This document shows, piece by piece, positions 335 to 27,961 of a stretch of 32,000 nucleotides of DNA. The notes beneath the pieces are model-generated. The model was not told the DNA's origin. It made no database searches and was given only the letters and a program-made list of their open reading frames with translations. Both the position numbers and the translations under genes were made by a program. Origin of the DNA: Pyrolobus fumarii 1A (GTDB taxonomy: Archaea > Thermoproteota > Thermoprotei_A > Sulfolobales > Pyrodictiaceae). Numbering within the stretch: position 1 is the first letter of the stretch; every line of letters begins with the position of its first letter. The stretch is taken from the NCBI RefSeq assembly GCF_000223395.1, contig NC_015931.1:425292-457291 (forward strand), given 5' to 3'.

Positions 335-406
335 AGCCCCGAACAGGCACAGAGACAACCCCAACCCCATACGAACAGTCACATCCACCCAGGGGCTCCA
401 CACCCC

Positions 407-5386: not shown

Positions 5387-5725
5387 AAAGGGTTGTGTCT
5401 AGGATGTGGGAGTTGCTGATTGTGTTTCCGTGTTTTGTTGTGTGTAGCTGTTGTGGTTGCGAGTTGTAGGTGATGTCTCAGTGTGCGCCTATGTCCGGGT
5501 TGTGTAGTGAGTTTGTTGTTTTACTGTCTCGTGTTGTGCTTGTCGCTTGTGTTGTAGCTTCTCTGTGCTGCTCTCTGGGCGCCCATTGTGCCTCTAGGAG
5601 AGGGTTCTTGCCATGAGACCGTGGGGTATGGTCCCGCTTTTGCCTGGGTTTGGCCTGGTTAGATCGTGGGTGTTGAGCCCGTGGGCCGTGGTGGCCGTGC
5701 CTGCAGGGTACTACCGTGTCTTGCT

Positions 5726-7536: not shown

Positions 7537-7654
7537 ATGAACCTGAGGCGCTGCAACACCCCGGCTTGCCGAGCCGGTTCCCTGGGTCCGGGGGCGGTCC
7601 AGGGCTTTCGAATAGTGTCACTGTAGACTGTACCGCGACTCCCTTGCCCGGCTG

Positions 7655-8761
7655 GTGGTGCTGGCCAGCGGCGCCATGCGCTTTAATTTTATGCAGCGAC
7701 GCTACTGTCTTCGTTGCTGGGAGTGTCTTGGCGTGGCTTCGTGGCGTAGGGTTAGGCTGGTCTTCGCCCCTGGTCTCACAGTAGAGTTTGTTGACCGCGA
7801 GCGTGGTTTGAGGCAGGTTGAGGGTCTCGCCGGGAGGGGTACGAGGTTCCCCGTGGTGATCTATGGGCCGGAGGGTTGCGGGAAGACCGCGTTTCTCCGC
7901 CAGGTTTTCGAGGTTTTGAAGAGCCTCGGGTATAGCGTCGTCTACGTGAATCCGCTCGGGAGGGAGGCTGGGGAGAGGCTGCTGACGACGGAGGATGTGA
8001 GGAGTCTCGTGGGCGCGTTGGCCGAGTTTGCTCTTGGCGGTGGGGCTGCGAGGCTCGTAGACGCGGCTTTGGGAGTCGCGTCTAGGCTGTTCGGGCGTAG
8101 CAGGAGGATAGCGTTCATAGCGGATGACGTATTCCAGGCTATTGGTGTCGAGGAGGCCGAGTTGTACGTCAAGAGGCTGTTGAACCTCATCGAGTATCCT
8201 CCGGGCGAGTATGAGAGGATTGTTGTCCTGGTGGCGTCTAGCGAGGGCGTCACGAGGGGGAGGATCTCTAGGCACAACTGGGCGAAGCTCATGATGATGT
8301 GGAACATGCCGAGGAGCGCCCTGGAGGAGCTCTACGAGCAGATACCGGGCGCTAAGCCGGGCTTCGACGAGGTGTGGGCCTGGACCGGCGGAAACCCGAG
8401 GTACCTGAGCCGACTCTACGAGGCCGGGTGGCGGGTGGACCGCGTGATAGAGGAGATCGTCGCTGAGAGGAGGGTGTTGCGGGCGCTCGCCCGGAGGTGG
8501 AGAAGAGAGCTGGAGGAGACTGTCAACGACCCGGACTACCTCATGGAGGAGTATGAGAGGGTGGAGGGGCTTGCACGGAAACTGATAGAACTCAACATGG
8601 TGGTGGAGGTCGTCGAGTACCGCAGCGAGGATCTCTGGATAGACACGCCTCCGCCCGAGAGGGACCCGGAGCTGGGCATAGGAAGGTTCTACGCATGGGC
8701 GACCCCGCTTCACAGGGAGGCTGTCAGGAGGATACTCTCCGAGTATTCTCTGAGCGGGTGA
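7655..8761 (+). CDS. Archaeal ATPase family protein (PF01637-type AAA/P-loop)
   Basis: 368-aa ORF. It has a Walker A motif VVIYGPEGCGKTAF and a Walker B-like motif IAFIADDVFQ. The layout FVDRERGLRQVEGL...P-loop is shared with the paralogues at 20490 and 30228. The start is probably downstream: the T/A-rich TTTAATTTTAT at 7682-7692 lies inside the ORF's 5' end, and GTG 7733 is a candidate start. Confidence 0.8.
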   Translation: MVLASGAMRFNFMQRRYCLRCWECLGVASWRRVRLVFAPGLTVEFVDRERGLRQVEGLAGRGTRFPVVIYGPEGCGKTAFLRQVFEVLKSLGYSVVYVNPLGREAGERLLTTEDVRSLVGALAEFALGGGAARLVDAALGVASRLFGRSRRIAFIADDVFQAIGVEEAELYVKRLLNLIEYPPGEYERIVVLVASSEGVTRGRISRHNWAKLMMMWNMPRSALEELYEQIPGAKPGFDEVWAWTGGNPRYLSRLYEAGWRVDRVIEEIVAERRVLRALARRWRRELEETVNDPDYLMEEYERVEGLARKLIELNMVVEVVEYRSEDLWIDTPPPERDPELGIGRFYAWATPLHREAVRRILSEYSLSG

Positions 8762-8815: not shown

Positions 8816-9787
8816 CTAGCCCTCGAGCCTATCGGTGGACGGCATGGCCTCTATGCTTACCGCGCCGAAGCCAGCCGCCCTCCCGGAACCCACCCCCATG
8901 ACCACAGCGTGGCTGAGGAGGTGCTCCACGGTCTCTACCTCCCCCTTGCCCACCCCCTCTGTCTCGACGTGGAGCTTCACATAGCCTATCATCGCTGGGA
9001 GCCTGCTCCCGTCGTACAGGTACCAGTATACCCTCGCGGTGTCGAGGGCCGCGTGGCTGGGGGATAGTATCCTCTCGGCGGCGATCAGCGCCCTCTCGAC
9101 GAGAGCCGTGTCGGGGTCGAACATGTCGTGGGCGTTCACGGCCAGCAGGTATGAGGGTGTGGGCAGCAGCCTCTTCCAGCGGGAGCCGGGGCGCCAGGGG
9201 TTAACCGGCAGCGTGGGCGACCTAAACACGATCTTGACCGCCTCTACGCCGTCGAGCCTGACTATAGGGTCGCTGTGCGTGTCGTACTCCGCTATCATCC
9301 GGGCCTCTACGGGCTCCACGGTGATAGCCGCTCCGCAGAACCTCACCGAGACGCCCCGCGAGAGGCACTCGAGCAAACGTGGCATCTCGTTAATCAAGTC
9401 GCCACCAGCACCAACCTCGAAGAAGACCACCTCGCCGTCTTCGAGCACCGGGGCCCGTATCTTGTCGCGTTGCGGGCCGCCCGGGTACACCGCCTCGACC
9501 CTACCGGGGCCGGTCACGCGGAACAAGGGCGTCACGGAGAGCCTCTTGGCCACGCTCTTCTCCGAGGAGGAGAGTATGGACGCGAACCTCTCCGAGCACA
9601 CCGCTAGGAGGCTCTTCACGAGCTTCCCGGTGTAGTTGCACACGCGTAGAGAGCCGAAGCCATACACCCTAACCGTGAAGGACCATCGCTCGAACCTAGC
9701 CACTCTATAGCCCCCGTGCACAGAGGAGCAGGGATTCAAGAAGGGTTTTCGAGCAGGATTTGCGGGAGACGCGCCCTGGTGCAACAC
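8816..9787 (-). CDS. cas6: Cas6-family crRNA endoribonuclease, paralogue b
   Basis: 323-aa ORF with a C-terminal MGVGSGRAAGFG loop. It contains SPTLPVNPWRPGSRWKRLLPTPSYLL and EHLLSHAVVMG, both shared with paralogue a. The N-terminus is probably shorter; the core begins near YRVARFERWSFTVRV. Confidence 0.72.
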   Translation of the reverse strand: MLHQGASPANPARKPFLNPCSSVHGGYRVARFERWSFTVRVYGFGSLRVCNYTGKLVKSLLAVCSERFASILSSSEKSVAKRLSVTPLFRVTGPGRVEAVYPGGPQRDKIRAPVLEDGEVVFFEVGAGGDLINEMPRLLECLSRGVSVRFCGAAITVEPVEARMIAEYDTHSDPIVRLDGVEAVKIVFRSPTLPVNPWRPGSRWKRLLPTPSYLLAVNAHDMFDPDTALVERALIAAERILSPSHAALDTARVYWYLYDGSRLPAMIGYVKLHVETEGVGKGEVETVEHLLSHAVVMGVGSGRAAGFGAVSIEAMPSTDRLEG

Positions 9788-9816: not shown

Positions 9817-10161
9817 CTACCCGTCAACCCCAGGGTCTACCCGCACATGCCTATACCTGGCTAGCATCTCTCTACACTCCTCATCACTATGCACGTGCAG
9901 CTCTACGGGGTAGTCTATCGGGAGGCCGTGCTTATCGAAAGCCTCCTTTAGCACCGCGTGCTTCACCAGCCTCGGGTCGGCGTCCTCCTCGAGGCACAGG
10001 AGCACATCCACATCGCTGAGGACTGTTAGCCTGCCCTCCGCGGCGCCACCGATGACATACACTCTGGCCCTCAACCCGAGGCTCTCGACAGCCCTGGCTA
10101 TGGCCTCGGCAGCCTCCCTCCACCTCCTCAGGTACTCTACGTGGTGCCTAGCCCAGAGCAC
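9817..10161 (-). CDS. Minimal nucleotidyltransferase (MNT), partner of the HEPN gene upstream
   Basis: 114-aa ORF with the motif VIGGAAEGRLTVLSDVDVLL (G-G/S ... D-x-D). It overlaps the upstream HEPN ORF by 14 nt, a coupled-operon arrangement. Confidence 0.85.
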   Translation of the reverse strand: MLWARHHVEYLRRWREAAEAIARAVESLGLRARVYVIGGAAEGRLTVLSDVDVLLCLEEDADPRLVKHAVLKEAFDKHGLPIDYPVELHVHSDEECREMLARYRHVRVDPGVDG

Positions 10162-10648
10162 GCCTCTCGACCTCCTCTAGCAGCTCGAATAGTCTCTTCG
10201 CGGCCAGTATCACATCCGCGACCTCCCGAGCCCCCAGCGTAAAGACCCCATAACGGGCCGATGTATAGGCGTCCTCAGCGTCTATAAGCTGGTCGCGGTA
10301 CTCCCTCGTGTACCTCCTGACCTCACCTGCGAGGCTCCGGCACCCCAGCTCCTCCAGCACACGCGCCAGTATCCCGAGCAGCTCGCGGAGACCGTGTATC
10401 CTCGGCATTTCGCCGGAGAGGCGGAGCAGAGACGCTTTTACGCGCAGCTGCATAGCCTGCTCGGCGCAGAAAGCGGCGATGTCATACCGCCCTCTCTCCA
10501 GCAGCTCGCGAGCCAGGGATAGGAAGAAGCGTGCACGATCCTTCAACAGCTCTACACGCTCACCACTACCCATCACGCACCCCGAAGAACCGAGAAACAC
10601 GAGAACATTATACACCATGACGCCGCCATACAGCTGGTACACCGACAA
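10148..10648 (-). CDS. HEPN domain protein (PF05168-type)
   Basis: The stretch ARELLERGRYDIAAFCAEQAMQLRVKASLLRLSGEMPRIHGLRELL plus YTSARYG matches the archaeal HEPN pattern A-x-f-x-xQ-x-E/x-KA ... P+xH-x-L-x-L ... aRY. The likely true start is the internal ATG at 10573 (MGSGERVELL). Confidence 0.8.
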   Translation of the reverse strand: MSVYQLYGGVMVYNVLVFLGSSGCVMGSGERVELLKDRARFFLSLARELLERGRYDIAAFCAEQAMQLRVKASLLRLSGEMPRIHGLRELLGILARVLEELGCRSLAGEVRRYTREYRDQLIDAEDAYTSARYGVFTLGAREVADVILAAKRLFELLEEVERRALG

Positions 10649-10811
10649 GACACTATGGCCGCGCGCATAACCGCGGGGGAGGACGCCGCTGCTCGAGACG
10701 AGCGTCCCGCTAGACCCGTCAAACCGAGACGAGGTTGGATAGCCGAGAGGAAGAGCACGGTGACCCCCAAGACGCGGCGAGGCGCTACACGCGGCCTCGT
10801 AGAACTATGGG

Positions 10812-11255
10812 CTACACTATGCGCATCCAGTACCTAGACGCGTCTCTCAACACCACGCTCTTCTCGAGCCTGTCGCGAAGCTCCTCGGGCGTGAGGGGTA
10901 TGAGGGTCGCGTCCCTCTCCCACCTCCAGAGCCGGTATAGCATAGAGAGCCTCTCCTCCATAGTGTAGCGCCCCCAGTCCCTAGATACTATCACGAGGTC
11001 GACATCGCTCTCGGCGGTGTAGTCCCCCCGCGCTATACTGCCGAAGAGGTAGACCGCCTCTACCCTCACGCCGCGCCCCCTGAGCTCTACAGTCAGCTCC
11101 TCAACCCACCTGCGTATCTCCTCGAGAAGCCTCCTCCACTGCTCTCTCCGCCGCCTCAACAACTCTCCTAGCGGCAGCCACTGCTCTCTCCGCGGTTCTC
11201 CCGCTGATAACTTCATCCGGGAGGCCCTCCACGACATCCGGGTACCTCGCGACAT
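10812..11255 (-). CDS. Minimal nucleotidyltransferase (MNT), second pair
   Basis: The motif LFGSIARGDYTAESDVDLVIV is present. The listed ORF start overlaps the HEPN ORF by 155 nt. A TTG at 11162 or 11159 (ELLRRRREQW, which aligns with the N-termini of the other MNTs) is a more likely start. Confidence 0.8.
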   Translation of the reverse strand: MSRGTRMSWRASRMKLSAGEPRREQWLPLGELLRRRREQWRRLLEEIRRWVEELTVELRGRGVRVEAVYLFGSIARGDYTAESDVDLVIVSRDWGRYTMEERLSMLYRLWRWERDATLIPLTPEELRDRLEKSVVLRDASRYWMRIV

Positions 11256-11559
11256 AGTAGTATTGTGTCAGCTCGTATGCGTCCTCCAGTTCCTCCCTGC
11301 CTAGCCCCAGGTTGGAGCCTAGCTCCTCGAAAAGCCTCCGGATGCTATGCGTCTTCGGGAAATAGCCTTTAAGAGCGAGCAAGACAGCTTTAAGCGCCTT
11401 CTCGGCAGCCTGCTGCGCCCAGAACACGGCGGCCGCACGATCACCCTCCCTAAGGCTACGCTCGGCACGCTCAAGATCCCTCCTTGCGAGCCTCAACCAC
11501 CATAAAACCTGCTCCCTAACCACCCTCCACACCCTTACAGCCGCGCCACTACACAGCAT
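11101..11559 (-). CDS. HEPN domain protein (PF05168-type), second pair
   Basis: The stretch RSLREGDRAAAVFWAQQAAEKALKAVLLALKGYFPKTHSIRRLFEEL ... YYYVARYPD is a textbook PF05168-type HEPN signature. Confidence 0.85.
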   Translation of the reverse strand: MLCSGAAVRVWRVVREQVLWWLRLARRDLERAERSLREGDRAAAVFWAQQAAEKALKAVLLALKGYFPKTHSIRRLFEELGSNLGLGREELEDAYELTQYYYVARYPDVVEGLPDEVISGRTAERAVAAARRVVEAAERAVEEASRGDTQVG

Positions 11560-12273: not shown

Positions 12274-13532
12274 GAAACAACCAAGAATGAATTGAAAGCT
12301 TCAGCGCGTAGTAGTGGCGCTCGAGACTCCTTGGCGAGTAGGAAACAACCAAGAATGAATTGAAAGTTCATCACGGTCGGTATGAGTGGGAGCGGCGGGT
12401 TTGGGAAACAACCAAGAATGAATTGAAAGTCCAGGTGCTCGATGGCCCATAGTGGCGCCTCTACAAGCGCGAATGGAAACAACCAAGAATGAATTGAAAG
12501 AAGGATGCGTTCGAGAACTGATATCGCGTTGTCAATTTCCCTCCGGGGAAACAACCAAGAATGAATTGAAAGGAGAGGAAGGCTGCCCCGGACCTCGTCC
12601 GCTCTATCGTCGATGGAAACAACCAAGAATGAATTGAAAGGCTATCATCGCCTCCAGTTTGGCAATGATTTGGTCAGCCTGTGAAACAACCAAGAATGAA
12701 TTGAAAGAAGCTTCTTGTACGTCTCAACGTCGGCCTCAACGCGTATTACTTTCGAAACAACCAAGAATGAATTGAAAGGCGACGTACGCGATGTGTGGCG
12801 ACTCGTTGAACTGTGTGTTCTGCCGAAACAACCAAGAATGAATTGAAAGTACAAACTCGTAGTTCTCTCCGCCACGGTTTATAACGATGAGAAACAACCA
12901 AGAATGAATTGAAAGTGCCTCGAACCTCGCGGCGGCCCTGTTATGGTTCGTGGCGGTGTGAAACAACCAAGAATGAATTGAAAGAACTATGCTCTGTAGT
13001 AGCCTGGGAAGCTCCGCGCTCATCCCGCGAAACAACCAAGAATGAATTGAAAGTAGTACACGCAATACGGCATTGCACACCCACCACGCGTACACTCTAG
13101 AAACAACCAAGAATGAATTGAAAGTAGTGTGGCACGACAGTGGCTATGACTTAGTGCCGGGCTATAGCCAGAAACAACCAAGAATGAATTGAAAGGTGAC
13201 ACTATACAACATCACGGACGTCGTGAAGAGGAGCGTGAAACAACCAAGAATGAATTGAAAGTTAACCCGGCCGCGCGCCGCGACGATCTCGAGATCGCGC
13301 CGGCGGAAACAACCAAGAATGAATTGAAAGGTGATAAAGTACGGCGCGCAATACGGCACCGGGTTCTGGATTGAAACAACCAAGAATGAATTGAAAGTGA
13401 TCTCCTGTGGGTTCGGTTTCTCCACCCTGATCTCGACATCAGAAACAACCAAGAATGAATTGAAAGGTAGCTGAGACCATAGCGTAGCCGGTAGAGTTGT
13501 GCCACGGGAAACAACCAAGAATGAATTGAAGA
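12274..13532 (+). CRISPR. CRISPR array 2: 19 repeats / 18 spacers, repeat GAAACAACCAAGAATGAATTGAAAG
   Basis: There are 18 exact copies (first 12274-12298) and a terminal degenerate copy at 13508-13532 (GAAACAACCAAGAATGAATTGAAGA, one A missing). Spacers are 38-47 nt and unique. The leader is on the left, so the array is read on the + strand. Confidence 0.97.
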
Positions 13533-13603: not shown

Positions 13604-14272
13604 TCATCCTCTGTAGGGTGTGCACATTCTTGGTACGGGGCTTTCTTGGGGGTCGCCGTCGTAGGTTATTCTCCCGTCTTGGAGTATGATTACGCGTTGG
13701 AAGTCTAGCCCTGGGTCTATATGCGAGGCTATTATCGTTAGCGTGTATCTCTCCTCTGCCTGCTCGGTTATGAACTCGCGTATCGCCCATATGGAGTCGT
13801 AGTCTATGCCGTTGAACGGCTCGTCTATGAGGGCGACGCGGGGTCGCCGCGCGTAGGCGAGTGCTAGTTTCACTCTCTTCCTGTACCCGGTGGAGAGTGT
13901 GGCGTACCTCTCGGCTAGTACCTTCCGGAGCCCCAGGCCCTCGATTACGTCGCTACAGTCGTTGAGGCACGTCATGTCGAGTAGTTGTTCGACTGTGGCG
14001 TCTGGCGGCTCTACACTGTCGAGTAGGAAGCCTAGCCGGAGCTTGGACCATGCCTCCTCGACGCTCAGCCGTTCGCCGCCCACGTTGTATTCTATGCGGC
14101 CGCGGTTGGGTCGCAGCACGCCGGCCATCAGGGAGAGTAGTGTGGACTTCCCGCTGCCGTTCGGCCCCGCGACAAGGACTAGCCTCTCCCCGATCCTCAG
14201 CCTGTCGATGCGGAGTGTGAAGCGCCCCCTCCTCTTCACGATGTTCTCGAGGAGGATCTCGACGTTGGCCAC
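13604..14272 (-). CDS. ABC transporter ATP-binding protein
   Basis: 222-aa ORF with Walker A GPNGSGKST, ABC signature LSTGYRKRV, Walker B VALIDEP and an H-loop ASH. It is the last gene of a tightly packed minus-strand operon. Confidence 0.9.
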   Translation of the reverse strand: MANVEILLENIVKRRGRFTLRIDRLRIGERLVLVAGPNGSGKSTLLSLMAGVLRPNRGRIEYNVGGERLSVEEAWSKLRLGFLLDSVEPPDATVEQLLDMTCLNDCSDVIEGLGLRKVLAERYATLSTGYRKRVKLALAYARRPRVALIDEPFNGIDYDSIWAIREFITEQAEERYTLTIIASHIDPGLDFQRVIILQDGRITYDGDPQESPVPRMCTPYRG

Positions 14273-14273
14273 G

Positions 14274-14630
14274 CTACCACCCCGTCCTCGAGACTATAAG
14301 CTCGCCTACGTGCGCCGTGTAGGGCGGGACACGCGCATGGACTATGATGATCGTCGGCGAGTGTGTGTAGGCGCTCGTGACGCACCCCAAGCCGGATAGG
14401 ACTTTGACGCTGGTGTTCGCGTGGGCTTGTGGGCCGCCAGCCCAGACTAGGGTTATGTTCGCGCCGCTAACGCCGTGGAAGCATACGGTGTACCTACCGG
14501 CGCCGAGCCACGCGCGGTACACGTACACCGCGTCGACGCTATAGGGCAGCAGGAGCTGCTCGACCGCGACCCTCGCCTCTAGCGGCGCGCACACCACAGC
14601 GACGCTGGCCGCCAGGGCCGCGAGCACCAC
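14274..14630 (-). CDS. Small exported protein of unknown function
   Basis: 118-aa ORF with a hydrophobic N-terminus (VLAALAASVAVVCAPLEA). It is 1 nt from the ABC ATPase start and 37 nt from the upstream gene. The start codon is uncertain. Confidence 0.5.
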   Translation of the reverse strand: MVLAALAASVAVVCAPLEARVAVEQLLLPYSVDAVYVYRAWLGAGRYTVCFHGVSGANITLVWAGGPQAHANTSVKVLSGLGCVTSAYTHSPTIIIVHARVPPYTAHVGELIVSRTGW

Positions 14631-14667
14631 CAGGTACTGGGCCAGGAGTATCCTCGCGTAGCGCCTC

Positions 14668-15426
14668 CTAACCGCGCGCCTTGAGCCTCACCACCCCCGC
14701 CACACAGAGGAGCACGAGGATGCCCGCGAGTAGGGGGTAGGCTAGGGGGCTGGTCTCGCTGGGAAGCGAGAAGAGGGCCGTGAAGAAACGCTCGTTTGCA
14801 GCAAACCCCGCGAGGCTGTCGAGCACGATGAGGAGCACTGTGAGCGCCATCAGCGAGAGGATGGCTAGACCCCTATCACCCACGTGGAGCGCCAGGGCCG
14901 TACCGGCGAGCAGCCCGGCGATACCGGCTCTCAACGCGCCCCAGAAGGCGGCAGCCACGTCACCAACCACGCCGAGATACACGCGCAGAACGAGTAGCAG
15001 CGCGAGACCGCTGGCGGCCGACGCTGGCACCAGGACGCCAGCCACGTATAGCATTATGCGGGCTAGGCCCCGGAGCCTACCCCCAGCAGCAACCATATCG
15101 AGGAACACATAGCCCCTCTCGACTCCACCCCCGAGGGCGAACACCACGTAGAAACCAGCCGCCAGGAACACCAGCAGAAGCACCAGGTCGACATAGCTCC
15201 TGGCTAGTGGGGACTCAAGCGTCAACGGCCTCTCCAGGAGAGTCTCCAACACGAGCTGCGGAGCGGCCCCCGTGCCGGTAGCGTTGAAGAGCATCCTAAC
15301 CCCCATGTACCCGCGGAGAGTATAGAGGAACACCAGGAGAGGCGCCGCCACCATCAACGCGAGGAGACCGGTGCAAACCCTGCACCTCCCCAGCGAGACG
15401 AGCACATACGCCACGCCCATACTCAC
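14668..15426 (-). CDS. Polytopic membrane protein (candidate ABC-2-type permease)
   Basis: 252-aa ORF with about six long hydrophobic segments. It overlaps the upstream gene by 4 nt. Its position next to the ABC ATPase suggests it is the permease component. Confidence 0.65.
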   Translation of the reverse strand: MSMGVAYVLVSLGRCRVCTGLLALMVAAPLLVFLYTLRGYMGVRMLFNATGTGAAPQLVLETLLERPLTLESPLARSYVDLVLLLVFLAAGFYVVFALGGGVERGYVFLDMVAAGGRLRGLARIMLYVAGVLVPASAASGLALLLVLRVYLGVVGDVAAAFWGALRAGIAGLLAGTALALHVGDRGLAILSLMALTVLLIVLDSLAGFAANERFFTALFSLPSETSPLAYPLLAGILVLLCVAGVVRLKARG

Positions 15427-16223
15427 CCCCTAGCCCTCCTCAACACGAGGAAGGCCGCGACCGGTATAGCAGCTAGACCGAGGAGCTTGACCAGCCCACC
15501 CCAGTCTATGTAGTGTACCGGCTCGCACACGCCACCAACTCTGCTCGCGTTAATCCCCACCATATCCAGCTCAATATCAATCACGTGAACACCATCCGGC
15601 ATCACAATCTTCGCGCGAACACTGATCGGATAGACATCCGAGCCATACGCAGCAGACAATAAGTCGTTAGCCTCAACAAGCCAGATGTTGATGACAGTAT
15701 CATTATCTAGGATGAGATCATTACATGTGATGCTAACTCTCTTACCCTGATAAACAAGCCCCATATCGTTAATGGTGTAGTTCAGCACTAATGTGGTGTA
15801 AATTGGTGTGAAGCCTACGAAGATAGGCTCCAGTAGAGCTGTGTTGTTGAAGACCGTTAGCCATGCATAGTTAAACCTCTTGTACACCATGAGTGAGACG
15901 AGCTTCGCCGATACGTTGTTAGCGGGCGATAGCCACACCTCAAGATGCGTCCCGTTAACCTCCCTAACATTCACTCTGCACAAACTCTCGTAGCTCCATA
16001 GCACGTCGTACACATTACCTGCCTCTACCCTAACAATATTATCATTGACGGAGGGAACCATATAATCTATCCAACACCAGTATAACTTACCATAATGCAT
16101 TATGCGTATGTCGGATACGCCTATTGCTGGATGTGAATGTGGCAACAGCAAAGCAGTAATGAAAAACAAAATGTTAATTGGCAGAGTTGCGTAGTGCACC
16201 CTCAGACACGGCATAGCATACAC
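15423..16223 (-). CDS. Exported, C-terminally membrane-anchored protein of unknown function
   Basis: 266-aa ORF with an N-terminal hydrophobic segment (INILFFITALLL). The C-terminal TM helix plus basic tail (LLGLAAIPVAAFLVLRRARG) and several N-x-S/T sequons are typical of archaeal surface proteins. The coding sequence is visibly A+T-richer. Confidence 0.65.
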   Translation of the reverse strand: MYAMPCLRVHYATLPINILFFITALLLPHSHPAIGVSDIRIMHYGKLYWCWIDYMVPSVNDNIVRVEAGNVYDVLWSYESLCRVNVREVNGTHLEVWLSPANNVSAKLVSLMVYKRFNYAWLTVFNNTALLEPIFVGFTPIYTTLVLNYTINDMGLVYQGKRVSITCNDLILDNDTVINIWLVEANDLLSAAYGSDVYPISVRAKIVMPDGVHVIDIELDMVGINASRVGGVCEPVHYIDWGGLVKLLGLAAIPVAAFLVLRRARG

Positions 16224-16225: not shown

Positions 16226-16765
16226 CTAGACTCTCGACTTGGGTACATAGGCAATAGCCTTCAGAGAGTGCGGGAACGTCTCTTTATCGTCGCATGATAT
16301 CCACCAAGTGCAATGTGTCACCTTATACTTGGCCTTGCCCTTTGCAACGAACTTATACCAATCACCATCTTTGTACTTTCTTAGATCAAAGCTGGTCTCC
16401 AATACTGTTATGTCGTACTTCTCGAAGCATGTAAGGGAGCACCAGGATTTTGTTCGGTAGCCTAGGCCTCCCGAGATGTATATGAACTTGCCTCGAGACT
16501 CGTCGTAGTCGCCGTAGATGGCTATGGCAGTGGCTGCGTACGCATTGCCCTTCGGGATGTGCACCTTTACAGTTACACCCTTCCTTATCGTTACGGTGAT
16601 CGTCACTGGGTCCTCGACATAGCTGGTCTGTGCTTTGCTCTCGGCCAGCTTCTTGACGCTATAGACAGCTGGACCAGCAGCACCAAGTGTCGCAACCGCA
16701 AGGATGGACGTGAACACGAGTATTGTCAAGACGAATCCCGGTATAATCGGGCGACGCGCGTACAT
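16226..16765 (-). CDS. Exported Cys-containing protein of unknown function
   Basis: The ORF track gives 16226-16885. The internal ATG at 16765 yields a canonical signal-like N-terminus, MYARRPIIPGFVLTILVFTSILAVATLGAAG. ATATATAC (transcript sense) lies about 40 nt upstream of that ATG. Confidence 0.6.
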   Translation of the reverse strand: MYARRPIIPGFVLTILVFTSILAVATLGAAGPAVYSVKKLAESKAQTSYVEDPVTITVTIRKGVTVKVHIPKGNAYAATAIAIYGDYDESRGKFIYISGGLGYRTKSWCSLTCFEKYDITVLETSFDLRKYKDGDWYKFVAKGKAKYKVTHCTWWISCDDKETFPHSLKAIAYVPKSRV

Positions 16766-17236
16766 GGCTTCTGTACCATTTGCGCCCTCCGGGAAGGGCG
16801 TGTATGTATATATCTGAACGGCTCTGTGTAGGCGAGCGCCGTTTTCAGCATGGAGCGCCCCTATACGGCGAGTATCTCTGCACACGTGTAAAGGAGGATC
16901 GTGGCATTATGCGTACTGTCATCCTCCGCCACGTATATGGCTGGGTCTTTGGGGCATAGCAGGGTGTGTATATCGTATAATTATCAATTATGCTATATCG
17001 TATAGCATTCTATTTGAGTGTGCGGGCTATGAGTCGAGTATTGTTTCGTACGTCTTTTCCTTGTAGGCGTTCATCGCGGGATAAGCATGTTGCAGGCTGC
17101 TGTAAACAATGCTATACACCTTCGCGGGGCCAACCCCGAGTATAGTGTTTGTATCGTAAAGCCGCTGACGGTAGTCTAGAGCGGGTGGGATGCATGGCAT
17201 CATCTCTGTCGCTAGCTGCGAGGGCGTCGCACGCCG

Positions 17237-18961
17237 TCACTGTGTGGTGTAGGGTAGCCTGGTTGTTAGTTTCTCGATTTTCACTGTTCTCTCGTCACCC
17301 TCAATTATTAGGGAGGCGTTGGAATCTTTCAATATCGTTGCTAGTATCGCGATGAGTTGAGCCGCGCCCGCTAATATGCGCAGGGCTTCTGTGATATCGC
17401 TTGTGTCGGCTTGGATCACTGTCTTTCCGGCGTTTGGTGTTAATAGTATGGCGCAGCCAGTGTCAGCCTCGCGCCAGGCGTTGAACGCTCCTTTATCGTT
17501 AGTCGCTAGTATGGTCTTTCCCCGGGCGCTTACCAGCATGTTTGCCTCGCATGTGCCGTGGCCCTCGACCCCCTGCTCTAGGAGCGCTTCGGCGGCCATG
17601 GAGGCTATGCCGGAGAGCACAGCCTTGATATCGCTTGTAGAGCGTTTAGCCGCCTCCATGTAGTTGGACAGCGCCTCTCGGTATGCGCACGCCGGGAACC
17701 GTAGCACGTTGGGCTCTCCCCTCCTCCCGCTTAGGGCCATTCTCCACGCTAGCTCGTAGATGTCGTTGTGTGCGCCGAGATAGGCTAGGTTGGTATCCCC
17801 CCACACGCGGTACCCTTTCCCGAGACTAGACTCGAGTATATCAACGAGGCTGGCGTGCTTCTTCACGAACTCCGGACAATTGGCATGCTCGCTCACCACT
17901 AGCCTCCATAGCCCCGCGGCGACCGGCAGCTCCCGGAGCAACCCGAGCCACTTCCGGAAGCCATCGTCTTCGCAGGTGTTTCTCCCTCCATGCCCAGCGA
18001 TAGGGTACGACGCGCTGTAGAGTGTGCAAGCCGCGTCCTCGCTCTTAAAGAGCGTGTGCAGCTCCACACTGACAGTCTCCGGCTCGAAACCAAGCCCCTT
18101 CACTGTCAACACGTGGATGCGTTGCACACCACTGCTCCTCTCACCCACCTCGATGTAGACTCTAGCCTCGTCTCTTGCTACCGAGTTCAGCAGCTGGTGC
18201 ACAAGCCCCACAGCTGTGTTGAGCGGTTGGAAGCCCCGGCCTCTCCTATACGAGAGTGACTCGAGGCGCTTGGGTACACGTATGCGCGTGGGGCTGGGGC
18301 TGGCTGCTTGACGCGATCCACTCACGATATCGAAGATGACTGGTTTTGCGAGGAGCCTTGGCACTCTCGGGTAGAAGCCCGTCTCGTCACTCACTGCCCA
18401 CCAACCGACCAGCCTATCAACGCCGTGCGACGAGGTGTACGTCAGTAACAGTTGGTGGCTACTAGCCGCCCTCACAGATATGGAGGCCGCTGTAGAGGCT
18501 ATCGAGGACATCAGCTTAGTCCCGCCGGTGACATCGACTATAACGTCGTGCCCATTTTGCAGCTCTCGTTTCAATGTGCCCTGGAGCTCCTGGACAACCC
18601 CTCCGGGGTCACGCACAGCATGCGTCATCAGCTCGTCGATCACCACATTAGGCCCGCCCTCTATGAGCGCATCTAGCCTCCTCCTAGCATCCTCGGCGTA
18701 CCTCCGCGACACGTTAGTGGCCAGCAGCACCGCCCTATCATACCCTAGGACCTCGTAGGCAGCCGCTAATACTGATGTTATGGCGGCGGCGTTCGTGCCC
18801 ACGGTGGCATACAGGACTCGGCCCACGCGTATAGCCCCAGCCTTAACGCTACACACCCGCATATAACCATACTTAGGCTCTCCGCACAAGCGCCAAACCA
18901 GCATATACGCGTTGAGAGCTACCCGCCGCCTGGCCTCAGCACACGGGCCTGTTGTGCACAC
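17237..18961 (-). CDS. CARF-domain / PIN-domain fusion protein (candidate cyclic-oligoadenylate-responsive nuclease)
   Basis: 574-aa ORF; the likely start is ATG 18862 (MRVCSV...). The N-terminal Rossmann-like region has VLYATVGTNAAAITSVL and IVDVTGGTKLMSSIAS (nt 18506-18535), the D-x-T-G-G-T/R-K motif I associate with CARF domains. The C-terminal region (about nt 17402-17815) has the PIN hallmarks RVWGDTNLAYLG ... EANMLVSARGKTILATNDKGAF. The middle ~190 aa and the C-terminal tail are unassigned. Confidence 0.65.
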   Translation of the reverse strand: MCTTGPCAEARRRVALNAYMLVWRLCGEPKYGYMRVCSVKAGAIRVGRVLYATVGTNAAAITSVLAAAYEVLGYDRAVLLATNVSRRYAEDARRRLDALIEGGPNVVIDELMTHAVRDPGGVVQELQGTLKRELQNGHDVIVDVTGGTKLMSSIASTAASISVRAASSHQLLLTYTSSHGVDRLVGWWAVSDETGFYPRVPRLLAKPVIFDIVSGSRQAASPSPTRIRVPKRLESLSYRRGRGFQPLNTAVGLVHQLLNSVARDEARVYIEVGERSSGVQRIHVLTVKGLGFEPETVSVELHTLFKSEDAACTLYSASYPIAGHGGRNTCEDDGFRKWLGLLRELPVAAGLWRLVVSEHANCPEFVKKHASLVDILESSLGKGYRVWGDTNLAYLGAHNDIYELAWRMALSGRRGEPNVLRFPACAYREALSNYMEAAKRSTSDIKAVLSGIASMAAEALLEQGVEGHGTCEANMLVSARGKTILATNDKGAFNAWREADTGCAILLTPNAGKTVIQADTSDITEALRILAGAAQLIAILATILKDSNASLIIEGDERTVKIEKLTTRLPYTTQ

Positions 18962-18974: not shown

Positions 18975-19415
18975 CTAGAGCTCCTCGGGCGTCGTGATGT
19001 GCTCCTCTGGGAGCTTGTGTCTACGGATGAACTCCACTAGGCTGTCGTCTATGGTTAGTAGTGTCAGGTTGTTCGCCAGGGCTATCGAGTATAGGAGGTT
19101 GTCCACCATATCCCGGTGTCCCATCATGTACATGCGTATGGCTTGCTCCACAGCCTCGGCCGTCATGGGGGCGTGCGACATGCTATCCCGGATAGCCTGG
19201 ACGCCCTCAACAACCCTCTGGATGTCCCCCGCCGGTCTACCCCTCAAGACCTTCACTATCTTCCAGAGGGCTTCCAGCAGGCTAATCTCACTATAGTACA
19301 GCTCGTGGCCGGCCAGCCTCGGAAGCGCCCTCATGACCCTCTGTGAGGTTTCGAAGCCCAGCACCGGTAGGAGGAAAGAAGTGTCAAGTAGTAGACGCAA
19401 GCCTCTCCTGCTCAC
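18975..19415 (-). CDS. vapC: PIN-domain toxin (VapC)
   Basis: 146-aa ORF with the four PIN acidic positions in context: LLLDTSFLLP, SEISLLEAL, DNLLYSIALA and LLTIDDSL. It overlaps the upstream AbrB-type gene by 32 nt. Confidence 0.85.
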   Translation of the reverse strand: MSRRGLRLLLDTSFLLPVLGFETSQRVMRALPRLAGHELYYSEISLLEALWKIVKVLRGRPAGDIQRVVEGVQAIRDSMSHAPMTAEAVEQAIRMYMMGHRDMVDNLLYSIALANNLTLLTIDDSLVEFIRRHKLPEEHITTPEEL

Positions 19416-19644
19416 GGAGGCTCTCCTCCTCCACGTCCTCCGCCGGTATGTAGCCTATCCTCCTCCCATGCAGAGCGAGCCAGAGCGCGTCGCGAACCGG
19501 CTCGATGATTATCCGGCCGTCCTCAGCCCGGATCCTAACCCGCTGCCCCTCAACCAACCCCACCGCCTCCGCAACAGCCTTGGGTATCACAACCACCCTC
19601 TTCCTCCCAACCCGCGTCTCGACAACAACGCCCACCACAATCAC
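19384..19644 (-). CDS. vapB: AbrB/SpoVT-type antitoxin (VapB)
   Basis: RVGRKRVVVIPKAVAEAVGLVEGQRVRIRAEDGRIIIEPV is a SpoVT/AbrB looped-hinge signature. It sits immediately upstream of vapC. Confidence 0.8.
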   Translation of the reverse strand: MIVVGVVVETRVGRKRVVVIPKAVAEAVGLVEGQRVRIRAEDGRIIIEPVRDALWLALHGRRIGYIPAEDVEEESLREQERLASTT

Positions 19645-20489: not shown

Positions 20490-21509
20490 TTGACACCGTG
20501 GAGGGATTGCGGGTGGAGGACCGGGCTGGGTACCTGCTTCTACAACCGGAGGGTTGAGACCGAGCGCCTTTCTAGTCTCCTGGATGGTTTCAGCCTCGTT
20601 GTTCTCGTGGGGCCGCGGAATGCTGGTAAGAGCGAGCTTGCAAGATATACGCTCCTCCGCGTGAAGCGCGTCAAGCCGATGATAGTTGATGCTAGGAGGG
20701 TGGTCGCGAGGGCCGGGCTGGGCGGGCGACTAGAGCCTCTCGGCGAGCGTGTGGTCGGCACAGTGGCGAGGTTTGTTGAGGAGAAGGCTGGGCTAGGTGC
20801 GCTACTCGACCTGGTCTCCAGTGTCTATCGGGAACTTGCTCTCGACGAGTATGTCGTGATAGACGAGGTTCACCTGGTTGCGCGCGACACTCTCCGCGAG
20901 CTTGAGGCTCTCGCTAAGCTGCTCCGCTTCTACCCGGAGTATAAGAAGTGGAAGATGGTAGTCACTTGTAGCGAGGGCTTCCTGCTGGCGCAGGGTCTGG
21001 CCGATAGGCTGGACGGGTACGGCGCCCGTGTTCTCCTCCTCGAGCCTCTAGGCGAGGAGGATGCGCGTGCACTCTACGAGGAGTACGTGGAGAGGAGAGG
21101 GTGCAGGCTAGGCTGGAGCCTCTACTGGGGGCTTATCGGCGGACTACCCGGCTACCTCCCAGACTACTGCGCGATGAACCCGGACGAGCTCAGACGATGG
21201 GTGCACGAGAGGCTCTCTAGCCTCGTATCCGCGCTCCTGGAGGCCGCCAGGGAGGCCAGGGTAGACCCCGCAGAGGTACTCCGCGCCGCACACGAGCTGC
21301 TAGTGGAAGGGCAACAGGTGCTAACGCCGCTGCACCTGACCCTAAGCAGGGTACTCGTACACACAAACATAGCGTACCAAGCCGGGCTCCAGCTAAAACC
21401 ACAGCTCAGGGTATACACCGTCGCACTAGCACTATGGGCGTCACGCGGCTACAACGAACCACCCAACCCCCAAGACGTGATCAAAGCAGCCAAAGAAGAC
21501 ACGGTGTGA
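20490..21509 (+). CDS. Archaeal ATPase family protein (PF01637-type)
   Basis: 339-aa ORF. The N-terminal WRTGLGTCFYNRRVETERL and Walker A VLVGPRNAGKSELARY, plus a Walker B-like motif YVVIDEVH, make it closely paralogous to 30228-31403. Confidence 0.8.
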   Translation: MTPWRDCGWRTGLGTCFYNRRVETERLSSLLDGFSLVVLVGPRNAGKSELARYTLLRVKRVKPMIVDARRVVARAGLGGRLEPLGERVVGTVARFVEEKAGLGALLDLVSSVYRELALDEYVVIDEVHLVARDTLRELEALAKLLRFYPEYKKWKMVVTCSEGFLLAQGLADRLDGYGARVLLLEPLGEEDARALYEEYVERRGCRLGWSLYWGLIGGLPGYLPDYCAMNPDELRRWVHERLSSLVSALLEAAREARVDPAEVLRAAHELLVEGQQVLTPLHLTLSRVLVHTNIAYQAGLQLKPQLRVYTVALALWASRGYNEPPNPQDVIKAAKEDTV

Positions 21510-21700: not shown

Positions 21701-22318
21701 CTACGCTCTCTGTTTACCTCCGAAGCACCTGGTGTATACCGGTTTGCGCCCCGCTTCTATCTCTTCGAGCAGCTGGTGTGCCTCCATCACTACCGTATCT
21801 GCTAGTCGGAGTATCCTCTCCCACCTTATCCTTTCAAGCGCGTCTAGAAACGCTTGTGTGTCCAATATGTTCTCCTCGCGGGCGAGAAGAAGGAGGCCCA
21901 CAGTTCCGGTAACAGCTGTGTTCCTCTTAGGGAGCAGCTTCGCCGCCTTTGTCCTCGCTCTCTTATCGTCAAGTACTAGGCAGATGCGTGTGCGACCCCT
22001 CCTGGAATAGTATAGTGCAATTGCGATTGCGTGCTTCTCTCCCTCGCCTAAACCTACAGCTGACTGCTCCACCACCTCTAGGTACTCCAATTGAGCATCA
22101 ACAATGTATGCCGCATACTCGTTAGGGTTGCATTCGAAATTCGGATGTTGTATCTCTTTGTAAACGCTGCGCGGTATGACAATAGTATAACCCTTCTCTG
22201 TTAGCTTATGCACCAGGTTAACCATGCCTAGTTTGCAGAGGGTAACTAGCGTGCTCGTATCCAGTATTATGATGCGGTTAGCCGCTCTACTCCTCGAATA
22301 GCTTATCGCTCGTGACAA
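21701..22318 (-). CDS. DUF3368/COG2405-type PIN-like protein (toxin partner of UPF0175)
   Basis: IIILDTSTLVTLCKLGMVNLVHKL...IVIPRSVYKEI and LGEGEKHAIAIAL...LVLDDKRARTKAAKL...VTGTVGLLLLA match my recollection of the DUF3368 pattern. It overlaps the upstream gene by 32 nt. Confidence 0.7.
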   Translation of the reverse strand: MSRAISYSRSRAANRIIILDTSTLVTLCKLGMVNLVHKLTEKGYTIVIPRSVYKEIQHPNFECNPNEYAAYIVDAQLEYLEVVEQSAVGLGEGEKHAIAIALYYSRRGRTRICLVLDDKRARTKAAKLLPKRNTAVTGTVGLLLLAREENILDTQAFLDALERIRWERILRLADTVVMEAHQLLEEIEAGRKPVYTRCFGGKQRA

Positions 22319-22928
22319 GGCCTCCTAGCTTCCTCCGCGCGATATCAACAAACTCTAAAACGTTCATGCCAGCCACCCTTGCGGCCAGAGTAACTGAGAT
22401 TAAGCCGCGCTCGTATAGCTTGAGGGCTGTCTCTAGACGCAGACGTTTATCCAGGAGTATATGCTTCTTCTCCGACTCCTCATAGCCACCATACACGCTA
22501 TATACGAAGGCTAGTAGCTCCCTATCGTCCAGCTCATTGAATATCTCGAGAGTCTCCCTTAGCAAGGATGCGAGGTTGCCCCGCTTTTCTACAGCTTGCC
22601 ACGCCCTCTCCCCCTCGTTAATGTCACGCAGCCTCACACCCTCCCTGCTGCTCTCCGTTACACCCTTCTTCTCCAACATCTCCAGCTCGTGCTCCACATC
22701 CTCACTCCACGCGCCAAAACGGTATGGTATGAACTCTACATCTTGTACAGCTCGCGGCGCGTGACTCGAGACTATGTAGAGGAGTTTCATGAGACGCAAC
22801 CTTGAGAGTTTGCCACCAGCGGTGTACAACGCCGCAAGTATGAGGTCACGTAGCGTGACCCTCTCGCCAGATCCACGTGCAACACGGCGAAGAGCGTCTC
22901 TGCTCAGCCTTGCCACGCTACTCGCCAA
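22287..22928 (-). CDS. UPF0175/COG2886-type antitoxin with a ~150-aa N-terminal extension
   Basis: 213-aa ORF with a TTG start. The C-terminal LRLETALKLYERGLISVTLAARVAGMNVLEFVDIARRKLG is a UPF0175 signature. The N-terminal part (RLRLMKLLYIVSS...FIPYRFGAWSEDVEHELEMLEKKG) resembles SocA/Panacea (DUF4065)-type domains. TTTTTAAGTAAAT (transcript sense, + strand about 22949-22961) lies 20-30 nt upstream of the start. Confidence 0.65.
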   Translation of the reverse strand: MASSVARLSRDALRRVARGSGERVTLRDLILAALYTAGGKLSRLRLMKLLYIVSSHAPRAVQDVEFIPYRFGAWSEDVEHELEMLEKKGVTESSREGVRLRDINEGERAWQAVEKRGNLASLLRETLEIFNELDDRELLAFVYSVYGGYEESEKKHILLDKRLRLETALKLYERGLISVTLAARVAGMNVLEFVDIARRKLGGLVTSDKLFEE

Positions 22929-25711: not shown

Positions 25712-26197
25712 CTAGAGTGTGATTGGTTTTGGTGGTGTTCTTGTCGTCTTGTCGCATAGGGTCTCCGCCCTGTTTATCCTCTGCTGCTCTTCGTGCGGGA
25801 TTGGCGTGTATATCGTCGTGTATCCTCTCCTAACCGAGTACATGGCTGCTATTATGGAGGCTAGTTTGCGGCCCCCGGTGACGTCTATTATGGCGTGTTT
25901 GGCGCCTCTCGTTGCCTCCTCTAGCTTCTCGAGGAGCTCGTTTATGCCCTCCTCGTCCGTGACGTCGTCAACCCTCAGCGCGTGCACGTGTATCGTGGTG
26001 CTTGGCGCTAGTGGTGGTTTGTCCGTGCCGGGGCATGGGCAGGTCCTGGCTATCTCTATCGCCTCGTGTACTGGTGCCCGCCTAGTCGCCACGATGTGAA
26101 CCTCTGTGGGTGTAGCTGCGTTGGCACGTAGCGCGCAGAGCACCGTGTGGAGGACTCCCGGAGACATCCCGAGTAGCACGACGAGCCTTGTGCCCAC
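25712..26197 (-). CDS. Stand-alone CARF-domain protein (Crn1 / Csx14 / NE0113-like)
   Basis: 161-aa ORF with a GTG start. The N-terminal LVVLLGMSPGVLHTVLCAL and the later IIDVTGGRKLASIIAA are the two signature motifs (L-G-T/M-S-P-G-V and D-x-T/S-G-G-R-K) that I recall from small CARF proteins such as Sulfolobus ring nuclease Crn1. No effector domain is fused. Confidence 0.7.
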   Translation of the reverse strand: MGTRLVVLLGMSPGVLHTVLCALRANAATPTEVHIVATRRAPVHEAIEIARTCPCPGTDKPPLAPSTTIHVHALRVDDVTDEEGINELLEKLEEATRGAKHAIIDVTGGRKLASIIAAMYSVRRGYTTIYTPIPHEEQQRINRAETLCDKTTRTPPKPITL

Positions 26198-26278: not shown

Positions 26279-27961
26279 GTGTGGGTGTCTTTCCCCTCCT
26301 GCTCGAGGCGGGGCTCTGGCTGCATGGAGGGTCATGAGCCTCTCCTGCCTCTCTATGCTGGTGTTGGCGTCGCGGCTGTGAGGGTGTTCGGGTGGAGTGT
26401 TGGGGCGGATGGCGTCCCGGTCTCTTGGGACCCGTTGGAGTGGATGGCTTGGCTCCGTTGGCCCCGCGAGGCTGTGGAGGCGTTCTCGACGCTCTATGGC
26501 CGCGTGTCAAGCGGGTGCGAGCGTGTCTCCCTGGTCTACCTGGACGCGGGGTCTCGCTCGTCGCCAGAGGCCCGCCGGAGCGTCTTCGCCGTGAAGCTCG
26601 CGGTGGTGCACCGGGTGTCGGTGGGTGGCGTTGTTGAGGAGCGTGTTGTGCACCCGTTGTTGAGGGGTGAGGGTGGGGCGGGGCTCCCTCTGCTCGTGGG
26701 CCGCGGGGGAGACCGGGCGAGGCAGGCTATCACCTACATTGTGGAGCTCGGGGCTGTCTACTCGCTGCTCCGCGGTGGTTGCGTGCTAGTCCTTAAGCAC
26801 GGGCCTCTCGCGCAGCAGCTGCAACAGTACCTGCGGCCCAGCTACGACCTTGACGCTGACGTGCTGCACTCTGCGCTCGTATACTCGGGCGTCGAGCGCG
26901 ACGAGGCTGACGCGATTGTGGATGCGGCTAGGGTTGAGGGTGGGATGGTCAACGCCGGTGTGGCTATACTCGAGCTGCTCTCTCGCATAGCGCGTCTAGC
27001 CGCGAGCGACGGGTCTGTGGCGGTGGCGGGCGTCACTGAGGACGTGACGGGTAGCCGTGTGCTAGCCTCGAGGCTCCTAGCCGAGGCTGCGAGGGCCGCG
27101 CTCGACGCGTATGAGGGCGGTGTGTTGAAGATCGACGGGCTGCGCTCCACAATCGCTCCGAGGATAGCGAGTCTCGTGAGGCTCGGCCGCGCGGCGCTAG
27201 ACCGTCTGTGCGGGGACGGGGGGTGCCTATCCAGGTGCCTGGGCCTAGGCGGCATGGATGACCGGGAGCTGCAGGCGTTTACGGTTGGTCTCGTGGAGGC
27301 GCTCCACCGTAGGCTCTTCTACGAGAGGCAGGTGCCGCTAAGGTCGGCTTCCATTGCTGCGCTCGAGGCGGCGGTATACACGGAGGTTGGCAGGCTCCTC
27401 GAGACTAGCGACGCGTCCATAATCCTCGCTGGGCATTGCCTCGCCGGCCCCATAGCCGTGACGAGAGCCTGGCGTAGGGACGCTCTGCTCGAACTCCTAA
27501 AGTGGACCGTGAGCGACGTTAAGCGCGACGTGAAGAAGGAGCTTTTGACTAGCTTCGCAGACGTGTATGCCTATGTCGTGCCGGGGGATCCGCCTACATG
27601 CGCGCGGATAGAGGAGCTTCTCGAGTCGAGAGGGTTGGCGGGGAGGGTAGACCCGTGGCTCCTCGTTAGGCTCCAGAGGGTCTACCCGCCGGTCCGCGTC
27701 GACACCGTCGCGCCCAGTGGCGAGGAGGAGGGCGTGGCGCTCGAGAAGCTGAGGGGGCTAGCTGCGCTCGTCTACCTGGCCTCCAGCGTATCCCTCCACG
27801 GGTACCCGGCTGGGCTCCTGGTGGCTGATGCCAGGTCTCGTGTGACGCTAGGCGAGGCGTCTATACTCGAGGAGCTTGCGAGGAGGCTCGCAGAAAGGTT
27901 ACAGCCCTACGCGGCCATCCTAAGACACTGGAGGTTGCGACGAGCAACGGTGGTAGACTAG
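26279..27961 (+). CDS. NurA-like nuclease-family protein (tentative)
   Basis: 560-aa ORF (GTG 26279; ATG 26324 is the likelier start). Its stop lies 2 nt before the HerA-like start. Motif-level resemblance to NurA: LVYLDAGSRS (compare x-D-G-S), VAGVTEDVTGSRVL, and the C-terminal SLHGYPAGLLVADARSRV (compare G-Y-P-x-x-L-x-x-A-H/D). It is larger than the NurA proteins I know. Confidence 0.45.
   Translation: MWVSFPSCSRRGSGCMEGHEPLLPLYAGVGVAAVRVFGWSVGADGVPVSWDPLEWMAWLRWPREAVEAFSTLYGRVSSGCERVSLVYLDAGSRSSPEARRSVFAVKLAVVHRVSVGGVVEERVVHPLLRGEGGAGLPLLVGRGGDRARQAITYIVELGAVYSLLRGGCVLVLKHGPLAQQLQQYLRPSYDLDADVLHSALVYSGVERDEADAIVDAARVEGGMVNAGVAILELLSRIARLAASDGSVAVAGVTEDVTGSRVLASRLLAEAARAALDAYEGGVLKIDGLRSTIAPRIASLVRLGRAALDRLCGDGGCLSRCLGLGGMDDRELQAFTVGLVEALHRRLFYERQVPLRSASIAALEAAVYTEVGRLLETSDASIILAGHCLAGPIAVTRAWRRDALLELLKWTVSDVKRDVKKELLTSFADVYAYVVPGDPPTCARIEELLESRGLAGRVDPWLLVRLQRVYPPVRVDTVAPSGEEEGVALEKLRGLAALVYLASSVSLHGYPAGLLVADARSRVTLGEASILEELARRLAERLQPYAAILRHWRLRRATVVD

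Follow-up and report, generated by a model that had tools for sequence, protein, structure and literature searches.

A CARF-PIN fusion protein of Pyrolobus fumarii as a candidate cyclic-oligoadenylate-gated nuclease

The question raised by the locus discussed here is whether an archaeal gene lying close to a CRISPR array encodes a nuclease that is switched on by a cyclic oligoadenylate (cOA), in the manner of type III CRISPR signalling. The gene is found in a 32,000-nucleotide stretch of the genome of Pyrolobus fumarii 1A (NC_015931.1, positions 425,292 to 457,291), referred to below as the window; all coordinates are those of the window. A preliminary description of this DNA had pointed to an open reading frame (ORF) on the minus strand, at 17237-18961, and had proposed that it joins a CARF sensor domain to a PIN nuclease domain. 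As laid out in the following, the protein is built, from its N-terminus, of a CARF sensor, a family-specific connector of about 190 residues, a PIN-like domain, and a tail made of a helix and a beta-hairpin. We consider it probable, if well short of certain, that this protein of 529 amino acids is an ancillary effector of type III CRISPR cOA signalling, a cOA-gated PIN ribonuclease (RNase) for which cyclic tetra-adenylate (cA4) would be the likeliest ligand.

The ORF itself, of 574 amino acids and with a GTG start, is present precisely as it was described. It is, however, the maximal frame, and the protein made from it is likely to be shorter. A database protein (P0001) is identical to the translation over 529 residues and begins at the GTG at 18826 (MGRVLYATVGTN); the two closest orthologues (P0002 and P0003, 60-61 % identity) begin at the same residue, in their case with ATG, and the gene callers also place the start at 18826. 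The 45 in-frame codons upstream of it (18827-18961, minus strand) have no counterpart in any of 16 homologues. Because of where P0001 and the orthologues start, and because the upstream codons are without counterpart, the gene is taken as 17237-18826 on the minus strand, with the stop codon at 17237-17239. The first 45 codons of the maximal frame are probably an untranslated leader or promoter region. All residue numbers given here follow the 529-residue protein, in which D389 and D489 of the 574-residue frame become D344 and D444.

The family to which this protein belongs is small. Among 5.8 billion proteins, a word-indexed search returned just P0001 and the two close orthologues, and a query with a 17-sequence profile added none, while HMMER, run exhaustively over 1.84 billion cluster representatives, returned 20 proteins at E <= 1e-3, mostly 500-580 amino acids long. 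A scan of a genome collection for further loci returned only the locus already known. Seventeen of the 20 proteins make up the family alignment (A2) on which the conservation counts in this text are based. The positions conserved in 16 or 17 of the 17 sequences are spread over the whole chain: G10, T11, E25, D98, T100, G102, and K104 in the N-terminal domain; W142-W143, Y152-P153, P156, P185, and N214 in the middle region; D344, G351, N354, C380, E384, C426, an acidic residue at 427, and D444 in the C-terminal domain; and A486 and Q490 (16/17 each) in the tail. All the motifs quoted in the preliminary description are present, and they turn out to be the most conserved positions of this alignment. 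With the 17-sequence alignment as input, AlphaFold2 produced a confident model, having a predicted local distance difference test score (pLDDT) of 90.9 and a predicted template modelling score (pTM) of 0.92; an input of three sequences gave a pLDDT of only 34.

The N-terminal domain, residues 1-135 (18422-18826, minus strand), is a CARF domain by PADLOC, by the family profile, and by Foldseek. Between 28 and 36 CARF models of PADLOC match it, with E from 4.3e-9 for the best to 1e-5. When the family profile was compared with the PDB, the matches were the Crn1 ring nucleases Sis0455 (7z55, E 1.4e-6) and Sso2081 (8htw, E 7e-6); a single-sequence PDB search with either the full protein or its C-terminal third gave no match. 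The Pfam CARF models (Csa3_N, Cas_APE2256, and CARF_Card1) match the window protein below threshold only, and one relative barely reaches the cut-off of CARF_Card1 (24.8 vs 24.6 bits). By structure, residues 1 to about 140 of the model match the CARF domains of Sis0455, Cam1, TtCsm6, Can2, Cad1, Csa3, and Cdn1 with a Foldseek probability of 1.0, and many of the matched CARF structures carry cA4 or cyclic hexa-adenylate (cA6). Neither the profile nor the structure searches led to any other Rossmann family, so the assignment made from the DNA alone is borne out.

The two loops that are expected to hold the ligand deserve a closer look. In the alignment of the family profile with Crn1, the G10-T11-N12 loop after beta1 (18791-18799, minus strand) falls on GTS of the Crn1 motif GTSPG, and the D98-V-T-G-G-T-K104 loop after beta4 (18515-18535, minus strand) falls on DITGGRK. 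The positions G10-T11-N12 and D98-x-T100-G-G-x-K104 are kept in 14-17 of the 17 sequences, apart from N12, which is found in 12; the exact counts are 17/17 for G10 and T100, and 16/17 for T11, D98, and K104. K104 aligns with the cA4-binding Lys106 of Sis0455, the mutation of which lowers cA4 binding about 2000-fold. Where Crn1 has its catalytic Ser11 (Sso2081 numbering), the window protein has Asn12, and the 17 family members have Asn in 12 cases and Ser in four. Since the catalytic serine is thus replaced, it is doubtful, as far as the sequence can tell, that the protein would limit its own signal by cleaving cA4.

The PIN-like domain, at about residues 326-465 (17432-17851, minus strand), was recognized by profiles, by profile-profile alignment with hhalign, and by secondary structure. 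Pfam PIN or PIN_12 matches five relatives altogether, two of them by PIN_12; the best match to Pfam PIN is that of P0007, which covers model positions 1-116 of 120 at E 1e-4 and scores 23.3 bits against a cut-off of 23.6. A profile made from the C-terminal region alone (A3) was more telling. At E <= 10 it matched five PDB entries, every one of them PIN or PIN-like: AF0591 (1o4w, 3.4e-5), HARP (7e8k, 9e-4), TTHA0540 (3ix7, 1.4e-3), and the two entries of PAE2754 (1v8o and 1v8p, 4e-3). In these alignments C-D falls on the third acid and T-x-D on the fourth. Further, when A3 was aligned by hhalign with an alignment of 28 homologues of the neighbouring VapC (A4), the match extended across 131 columns at E 2.9e-4, and D344, E384, E427, and D444 aligned with the VapC invariants D11, E48, D102/D105, and D123; hhalign runs against single PIN sequences gave no significance.

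These four acids are located at 17795-17797 (D344), 17675-17677 (E384), 17546-17548 (E427), and 17495-17497 (D444), all on the minus strand. D344, E384, and D444 are present in all 17 sequences, and D or E at position 427 in 16; the four agree with the places of the PIN acids at the end of beta1, in alpha3, after beta3, and after beta4. The secondary structure of the AlphaFold2 model follows the order of a PIN fold, as judged from the order of the elements rather than their coordinates: a strand at 340-343, helices, a strand at 375-377, helices at 379-393 and 400-414, a helix at 426-433, a strand at 438-442, a helix at 445-454, and a strand at 458-464. Going by these alignments, the C-terminal domain is PIN-like and its set of four PIN acids is intact, and the acids would be expected to cluster in three dimensions. 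The two results that, according to the preliminary description, would have spoken against the domain calls, a non-CARF Rossmann family at the N-terminus and a non-PIN fold at the C-terminus, did not come up in the searches made. The preliminary description had correctly named the first acid and the last two acidic positions and had missed the second, E384 (E429 in the numbering of the 574-residue frame).

It is also worth pointing out that two cysteines, each found in 16 of the 17 sequences, stand directly beside PIN acids. C380 (17687-17689) precedes the second acid in a C380-x3-E384 spacing, and C426 is immediately followed by the third acid (C426-E427, 17546-17551). The two cysteines might make a disulfide bond or bind a metal.

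Between the two recognizable domains lies the middle region, residues 136-325 (17852-18421, minus strand). It begins with a linker that carries the invariant W142-W143, Y152-P153, P156, and P185, and continues into an alpha/beta module with the invariant N214. AlphaFold2 modelled these residues with confidence. Neither the PDB nor Pfam yielded any relative to a profile of the region, which likewise matched no helix-turn-helix (HTH) or winged HTH model. The C-terminal tail, residues 466-529 (17240-17431, minus strand), is conserved and likewise without family assignment; both it and the middle region are family-specific. The tail had been characterized as beta-rich, which is half the picture: three short strands with an E-G-D motif are indeed there in the model, but they are preceded by a long, conserved helix at 478-499.

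The genomic setting of the relatives has a direct bearing on the question of function. Members of the family occur time and again near type III-B genes, CRISPR arrays, or other CARF genes: six of nine loci are linked to CRISPR in one or more of these forms, in keeping with the CRISPR connection suggested at the outset. Both loci of the close orthologues (L001 and L002) have Cmr4, Cmr1, and Cmr6 upstream, 1.7-5.5 kb away, and L002 runs on into its Cmr module where the window runs on into PaREP1, CARF_m13, and HerA genes. Elsewhere, one relative starts 25 bp past a CRISPR array (L009), and another follows a CRISPR array and Csa1 (L008). A cluster of four CARF genes in L007 holds a third relative, flanked on one side by a CARF7 (Crn1-family) protein (E 1e-119) and on the other by a CARF_m13 protein; Csx1 and the HerA pair that is also present in the window are its near neighbours. 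The L001/L003 locus comes from a metagenome-assembled genome (MAG) of the Desulfurococcales, and other loci carry archaeal neighbour genes such as L37e, Rpb6, Pcc1, and RFC. In L004, L006, L009, and L010, the homologue is found 30-380 bp from a contig end; it is a CRISPR array that breaks the assembly in L009, and adjacency to CRISPR is possible in the other three.

The combination of a CARF and a PIN domain is not new. The preliminary description was right that such architectures are known from computational work, but the territory is less unexplored than it implied: the architecture has been named Crf10/Crf11, one such protein has been assayed, and a cA4-bound structure of similar fold is in the PDB. 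In the 2025 CRISPR-Cas classification, Crf10/Crf11 (legacy name CARF_m3) are archaea-specific CARF+PIN sensor-effectors with a predicted RNase function (PMC12669027, Supplementary Table 2). The corresponding PADLOC model, CARF_m3--CARF_PIN (PDLC01984), matches residues 12-453 of the window protein at E 2.2e-8, over model positions 13-365 of 433; the score of 31.7 bits is low for a model of 433 positions, and PADLOC gives no curated cut-off. PDLC01984 matches nine of 17 relatives (best E 2.5e-16) and PDLC01983 matches five of 17. The family shares with Crf10/Crf11 the N-terminal CARF and C-terminal PIN domains, the archaeal hosts, and the link to type III systems. It differs in having its own WW/YP connector, an alpha/beta insert of about 125 residues, and a tail of a helix and a hairpin. 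Given the low profile scores and this family-specific connector and tail, the group of about 20 members looks like a divergent sister or sub-clade of Crf10/Crf11 rather than a set of typical members.

The best full-chain match by Foldseek is SiRe_0806 of Sulfolobus islandicus, which was released in 2025 in an apo form (9jxw) and a cA4-bound form (9jxx). The match has an E of 1e-7, and the TM-score is 0.47-0.49 on the query and 0.58-0.60 on the 411-residue target. The TM contribution is about 2.6 times that of the CARF-only matches, and at least one further module must therefore be shared. SiRe_0806 thus binds cA4 and has more than the CARF domain in common with the window protein; it differs in being about 118 residues shorter, with an identity of only 9-11 %. 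No sequence link between the two was found by HMMER profiles, or when the Sulfolobales-like relatives P0013 and P0016 were used as PDB queries, and no paper describing SiRe_0806 was found in the literature searched, which included searches by PDB code.

Each of the better-known protein groups resembles the window protein in part. The Crn1 ring nucleases (Sso2081, 8htw/7yhl; Sis0455, 7z55; CARF7/Crf7) have the closest CARF domain by sequence, with the GTx and DxTGGxK loops, but they are stand-alone CARF proteins of about 180 amino acids, have no effector domain, and carry Ser11 where the window protein has Asn12. The VapC and other PIN RNases (1o4w, 1v8o, 3ix7, 7e8k; PF01850) share the positions of the four acids and the order of strands and helices. 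In contrast to them, the window protein has its PIN domain joined to a sensor rather than matched with an antitoxin, falls below the Pfam threshold, and belongs to a family with the additional conserved residues G351, H353-N354, and C380/C426. With Csx1/Csm6, the cOA-activated CARF-HEPN RNases, it has in common the CARF fold and the expected principle of a cOA-bound CARF dimer that switches on a C-terminal RNase by allostery; HEPN is metal-independent whereas PIN is metal-dependent, and the full-length TM-score is only about 0.2. Finally, ST0035 of S. tokodaii is also crenarchaeal and also combines CARF and PIN, a likeness of domain make-up.

How such a protein might work can be outlined from these similarities. 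The CARF domains would pair into a homodimer, and cOA would come from a Cmr complex, with genes in another part of the genome, once that complex recognizes its target RNA. The dimer interface would take up the cOA, most likely cA4, since crenarchaea usually signal with cA4 and the closest structures have it as their ligand. The connector could then relay a conformational change by which the PIN site of D344, E384, E427, and D444 opens or assembles. RNA would presumably be the substrate, cut in a Mg2+/Mn2+-dependent reaction, and the growth of both cell and virus would be slowed.

A number of results weigh against this account. On the side of the nuclease domain, Pfam PIN does not match the window protein even at E <= 10, its matches to four relatives all lie below the gathering score, the hhalign match between A3 and A4 has a probability of just 40 %, and the third acid is Glu where Asp is the usual residue. 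Other results would sit more comfortably with a stress or toxin module operating outside type III cOA signalling, that is, a CARF-PIN protein with VapC-like activity that senses some other nucleotide-like ligand, for instance ends or fragments of RNA, a kind of ligand proposed for RtcR, and whose gene merely happens to be in a defence island. The 32-kb window has no Cas10 or Cmr gene; three of nine loci show housekeeping neighbours only or lie on contigs too short to judge; and the gene stands among toxin-antitoxin pairs (VapBC, UPF0175/DUF3368-PIN, and HEPN/nucleotidyltransferase). The literature adds two points in the same direction. The related Crf6 clade, also CARF+PIN, is described as typically not associated with CRISPR (PMC12669027), and ST0035, for which alone among CARF-PIN proteins assay data were found in the literature searched, showed weak cross-linking to cA4 and no induced RNase activity (Shah et al. 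2018, PMC6546367). All the same, we regard such an independent module as unlikely. It is hard to square with the six CRISPR-linked loci of nine, with the Cmr genes upstream of both orthologues and the four CARF genes of L007, with CARF loops so like those of the cA4-binding Crn1 proteins down to the lysine equivalent to Lys106 of Sis0455, and with a closest full-length structure that is a cA4 complex.

The resemblance to Crn1 brings up another reading, in which the protein serves mainly to switch the signal off: its CARF domain would degrade cA4 like a ring nuclease or sequester it as a cOA sponge, and its PIN domain would be constitutive, auxiliary, or inactive. The best CARF matches by sequence are, after all, Sso2081 and Sis0455, and the Ser of Crn1 is retained in four of 17 members. 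That Asn stands at this very position in the window protein and in 12 of 17 members, that the PIN acids are conserved in 16-17 of 17 sequences as befits a catalytic domain, and that a dedicated Crn1-family protein is encoded next door in L007 make this reading improbable. Least probable of all, to our mind, is a Csa3-type transcription regulator responsive to cOA, with a DNA-binding middle module and a PIN domain degraded to a scaffold: no HTH or winged HTH profile matches the middle region, the similarity to Csa3 is limited to the CARF domain, and the PIN catalytic residues are conserved, against which one can set a weak Pfam match to Csa3_N (E 0.013-0.016), the presence of Csa3 among the CARF matches of Foldseek, and the lack of an assigned family for the middle module. 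Very little probability is also left for joint action with the adjacent VapBC pair as a three-gene module, in which, for example, a VapB-type antitoxin would restrain the CARF-PIN nuclease as well. Its attraction is that the same MazE/AbrB and PIN pair lies directly upstream in both the window and L002, with gaps of about 150 nucleotides. The pair is, however, absent from the equally close L001 and from all the more distant loci; the synteny between the window and L002 extends beyond the pair, which may owe its place next to the gene to nothing more than shared descent; and VapBC pairs abound in these archaea (100 close homologues).

Returning to the cOA-gated PIN RNase, one may go a step further and imagine the group of about 20 members as a distinct lineage of metal-dependent RNases, gated by cOA and perhaps regulated unlike the CARF-HEPN proteins. 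This view is speculative, and we would put it forward with low confidence. Here the link between the CARF dimer and the PIN pocket would be made by the invariant WW/YP connector and the private alpha/beta insert, C380 and C426 beside two of the catalytic acids might act as a disulfide or metal switch, and the target might be a specific RNA, such as a tRNA or rRNA as with the VapC toxins, instead of RNA being degraded indiscriminately.

Whichever way the details fall, the CARF-PIN architecture has been catalogued already, and the family discussed here looks like a divergent branch of it. No published demonstration of CARF-PIN activity was found in the literature searched, where the effector role is listed by prediction only. 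The family provides a defined candidate in this respect, with a confident model, a complete PIN set, and the residues K104, D344, E384, E427, and D444 to work with, and its loci bring CARF-PIN proteins together with Cmr complexes and ring nucleases. A cOA-gated outcome would be conceptually expected more than surprising. If activation by cOA proved true, a metal-dependent class of RNases would join the known cOA effectors, and it would be seen by what means a CARF dimer governs a PIN active site.

The surroundings of the gene in the window are rich in CRISPR-related and toxin-like genes. Downstream, a CRISPR array of 19 repeats (GAAACAACCAAGAATGAATTGAAAG) lies at 12274-13532 on the plus strand, separated from the gene by 3705 bp, which agrees with the distance of 3.7 kb given earlier. 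A second and larger array, with 69 repeats (GAAACAACAAAGAATGAATTGAAAG) in minus orientation, extends over 478-5126; a single base sets its repeat apart from that of the smaller array. This large array explains the low GC content and strong AT skew of the region and the overlapping, spurious ORFs on its plus strand; a giant minus-strand gene considered for 1-5700 was dismissed, the region being a CRISPR array. Rfam and tRNA scans of the window came back empty.

Two Cas6 paralogues, at 5726-6700 and 8816-9787 on the minus strand, are recognized by PADLOC (E 1e-25 and 3e-31), and both sit between the two arrays. They enclose a PaREP1 gene (6985-7536) and an unannotated ORF of 404 amino acids (7499-8713). 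Two tandem pairs of a HEPN and a nucleotidyltransferase gene follow on the minus strand at 9817-11559 (10148-10648/9817-10161 and 11101-11559/10812-11255), and there is a similar pair at the corresponding place in L001. Between the 19-repeat array and the CARF-PIN gene, four minus-strand genes at 13604-16223 code for proteins of 266, 252, and 118 amino acids, none of which matches Pfam, and an ABC-type ATPase. This cluster is syntenic in the Desulfurococcales MAG, at 4610-7220 of L001 (263, 248, 118, and 222 amino acids). The ORF nearest to the CARF-PIN gene, of 219 amino acids at 16226-16885, is without counterpart in L001.

Directly upstream is the VapBC pair noticed at first reading, and Pfam supports its identification: a VapC of the PIN family at 18975-19415 (E 1.8e-10) and a MazE/AbrB-type antitoxin at 19384-19644 (E 9e-13), both on the minus strand. 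The pair is regarded here simply as a neighbour of the CARF-PIN gene. Next come an archaeal AAA ATPase at 20490-21509, which occupies the same position in L001 and L002, and a pair of UPF0175 (22287-22928) and DUF3368/PIN_4 (21701-22318) genes, which recurs in L002 only. A second CARF protein, of the CARF_m13 type (25712-26197, E 1e-44), is encoded divergently to a HerA pair. This pair consists of a HerA-like ATPase of 677 amino acids (27964-29997) and an upstream, unannotated partner of 560 amino acids (26279-27961), which has no match in Pfam or PADLOC and, from the impression given by its motifs, may be NurA-like. The HerA pair recurs in L007 (1455-10299), at 34-36 % identity and with E of 3e-53 and 3e-103.

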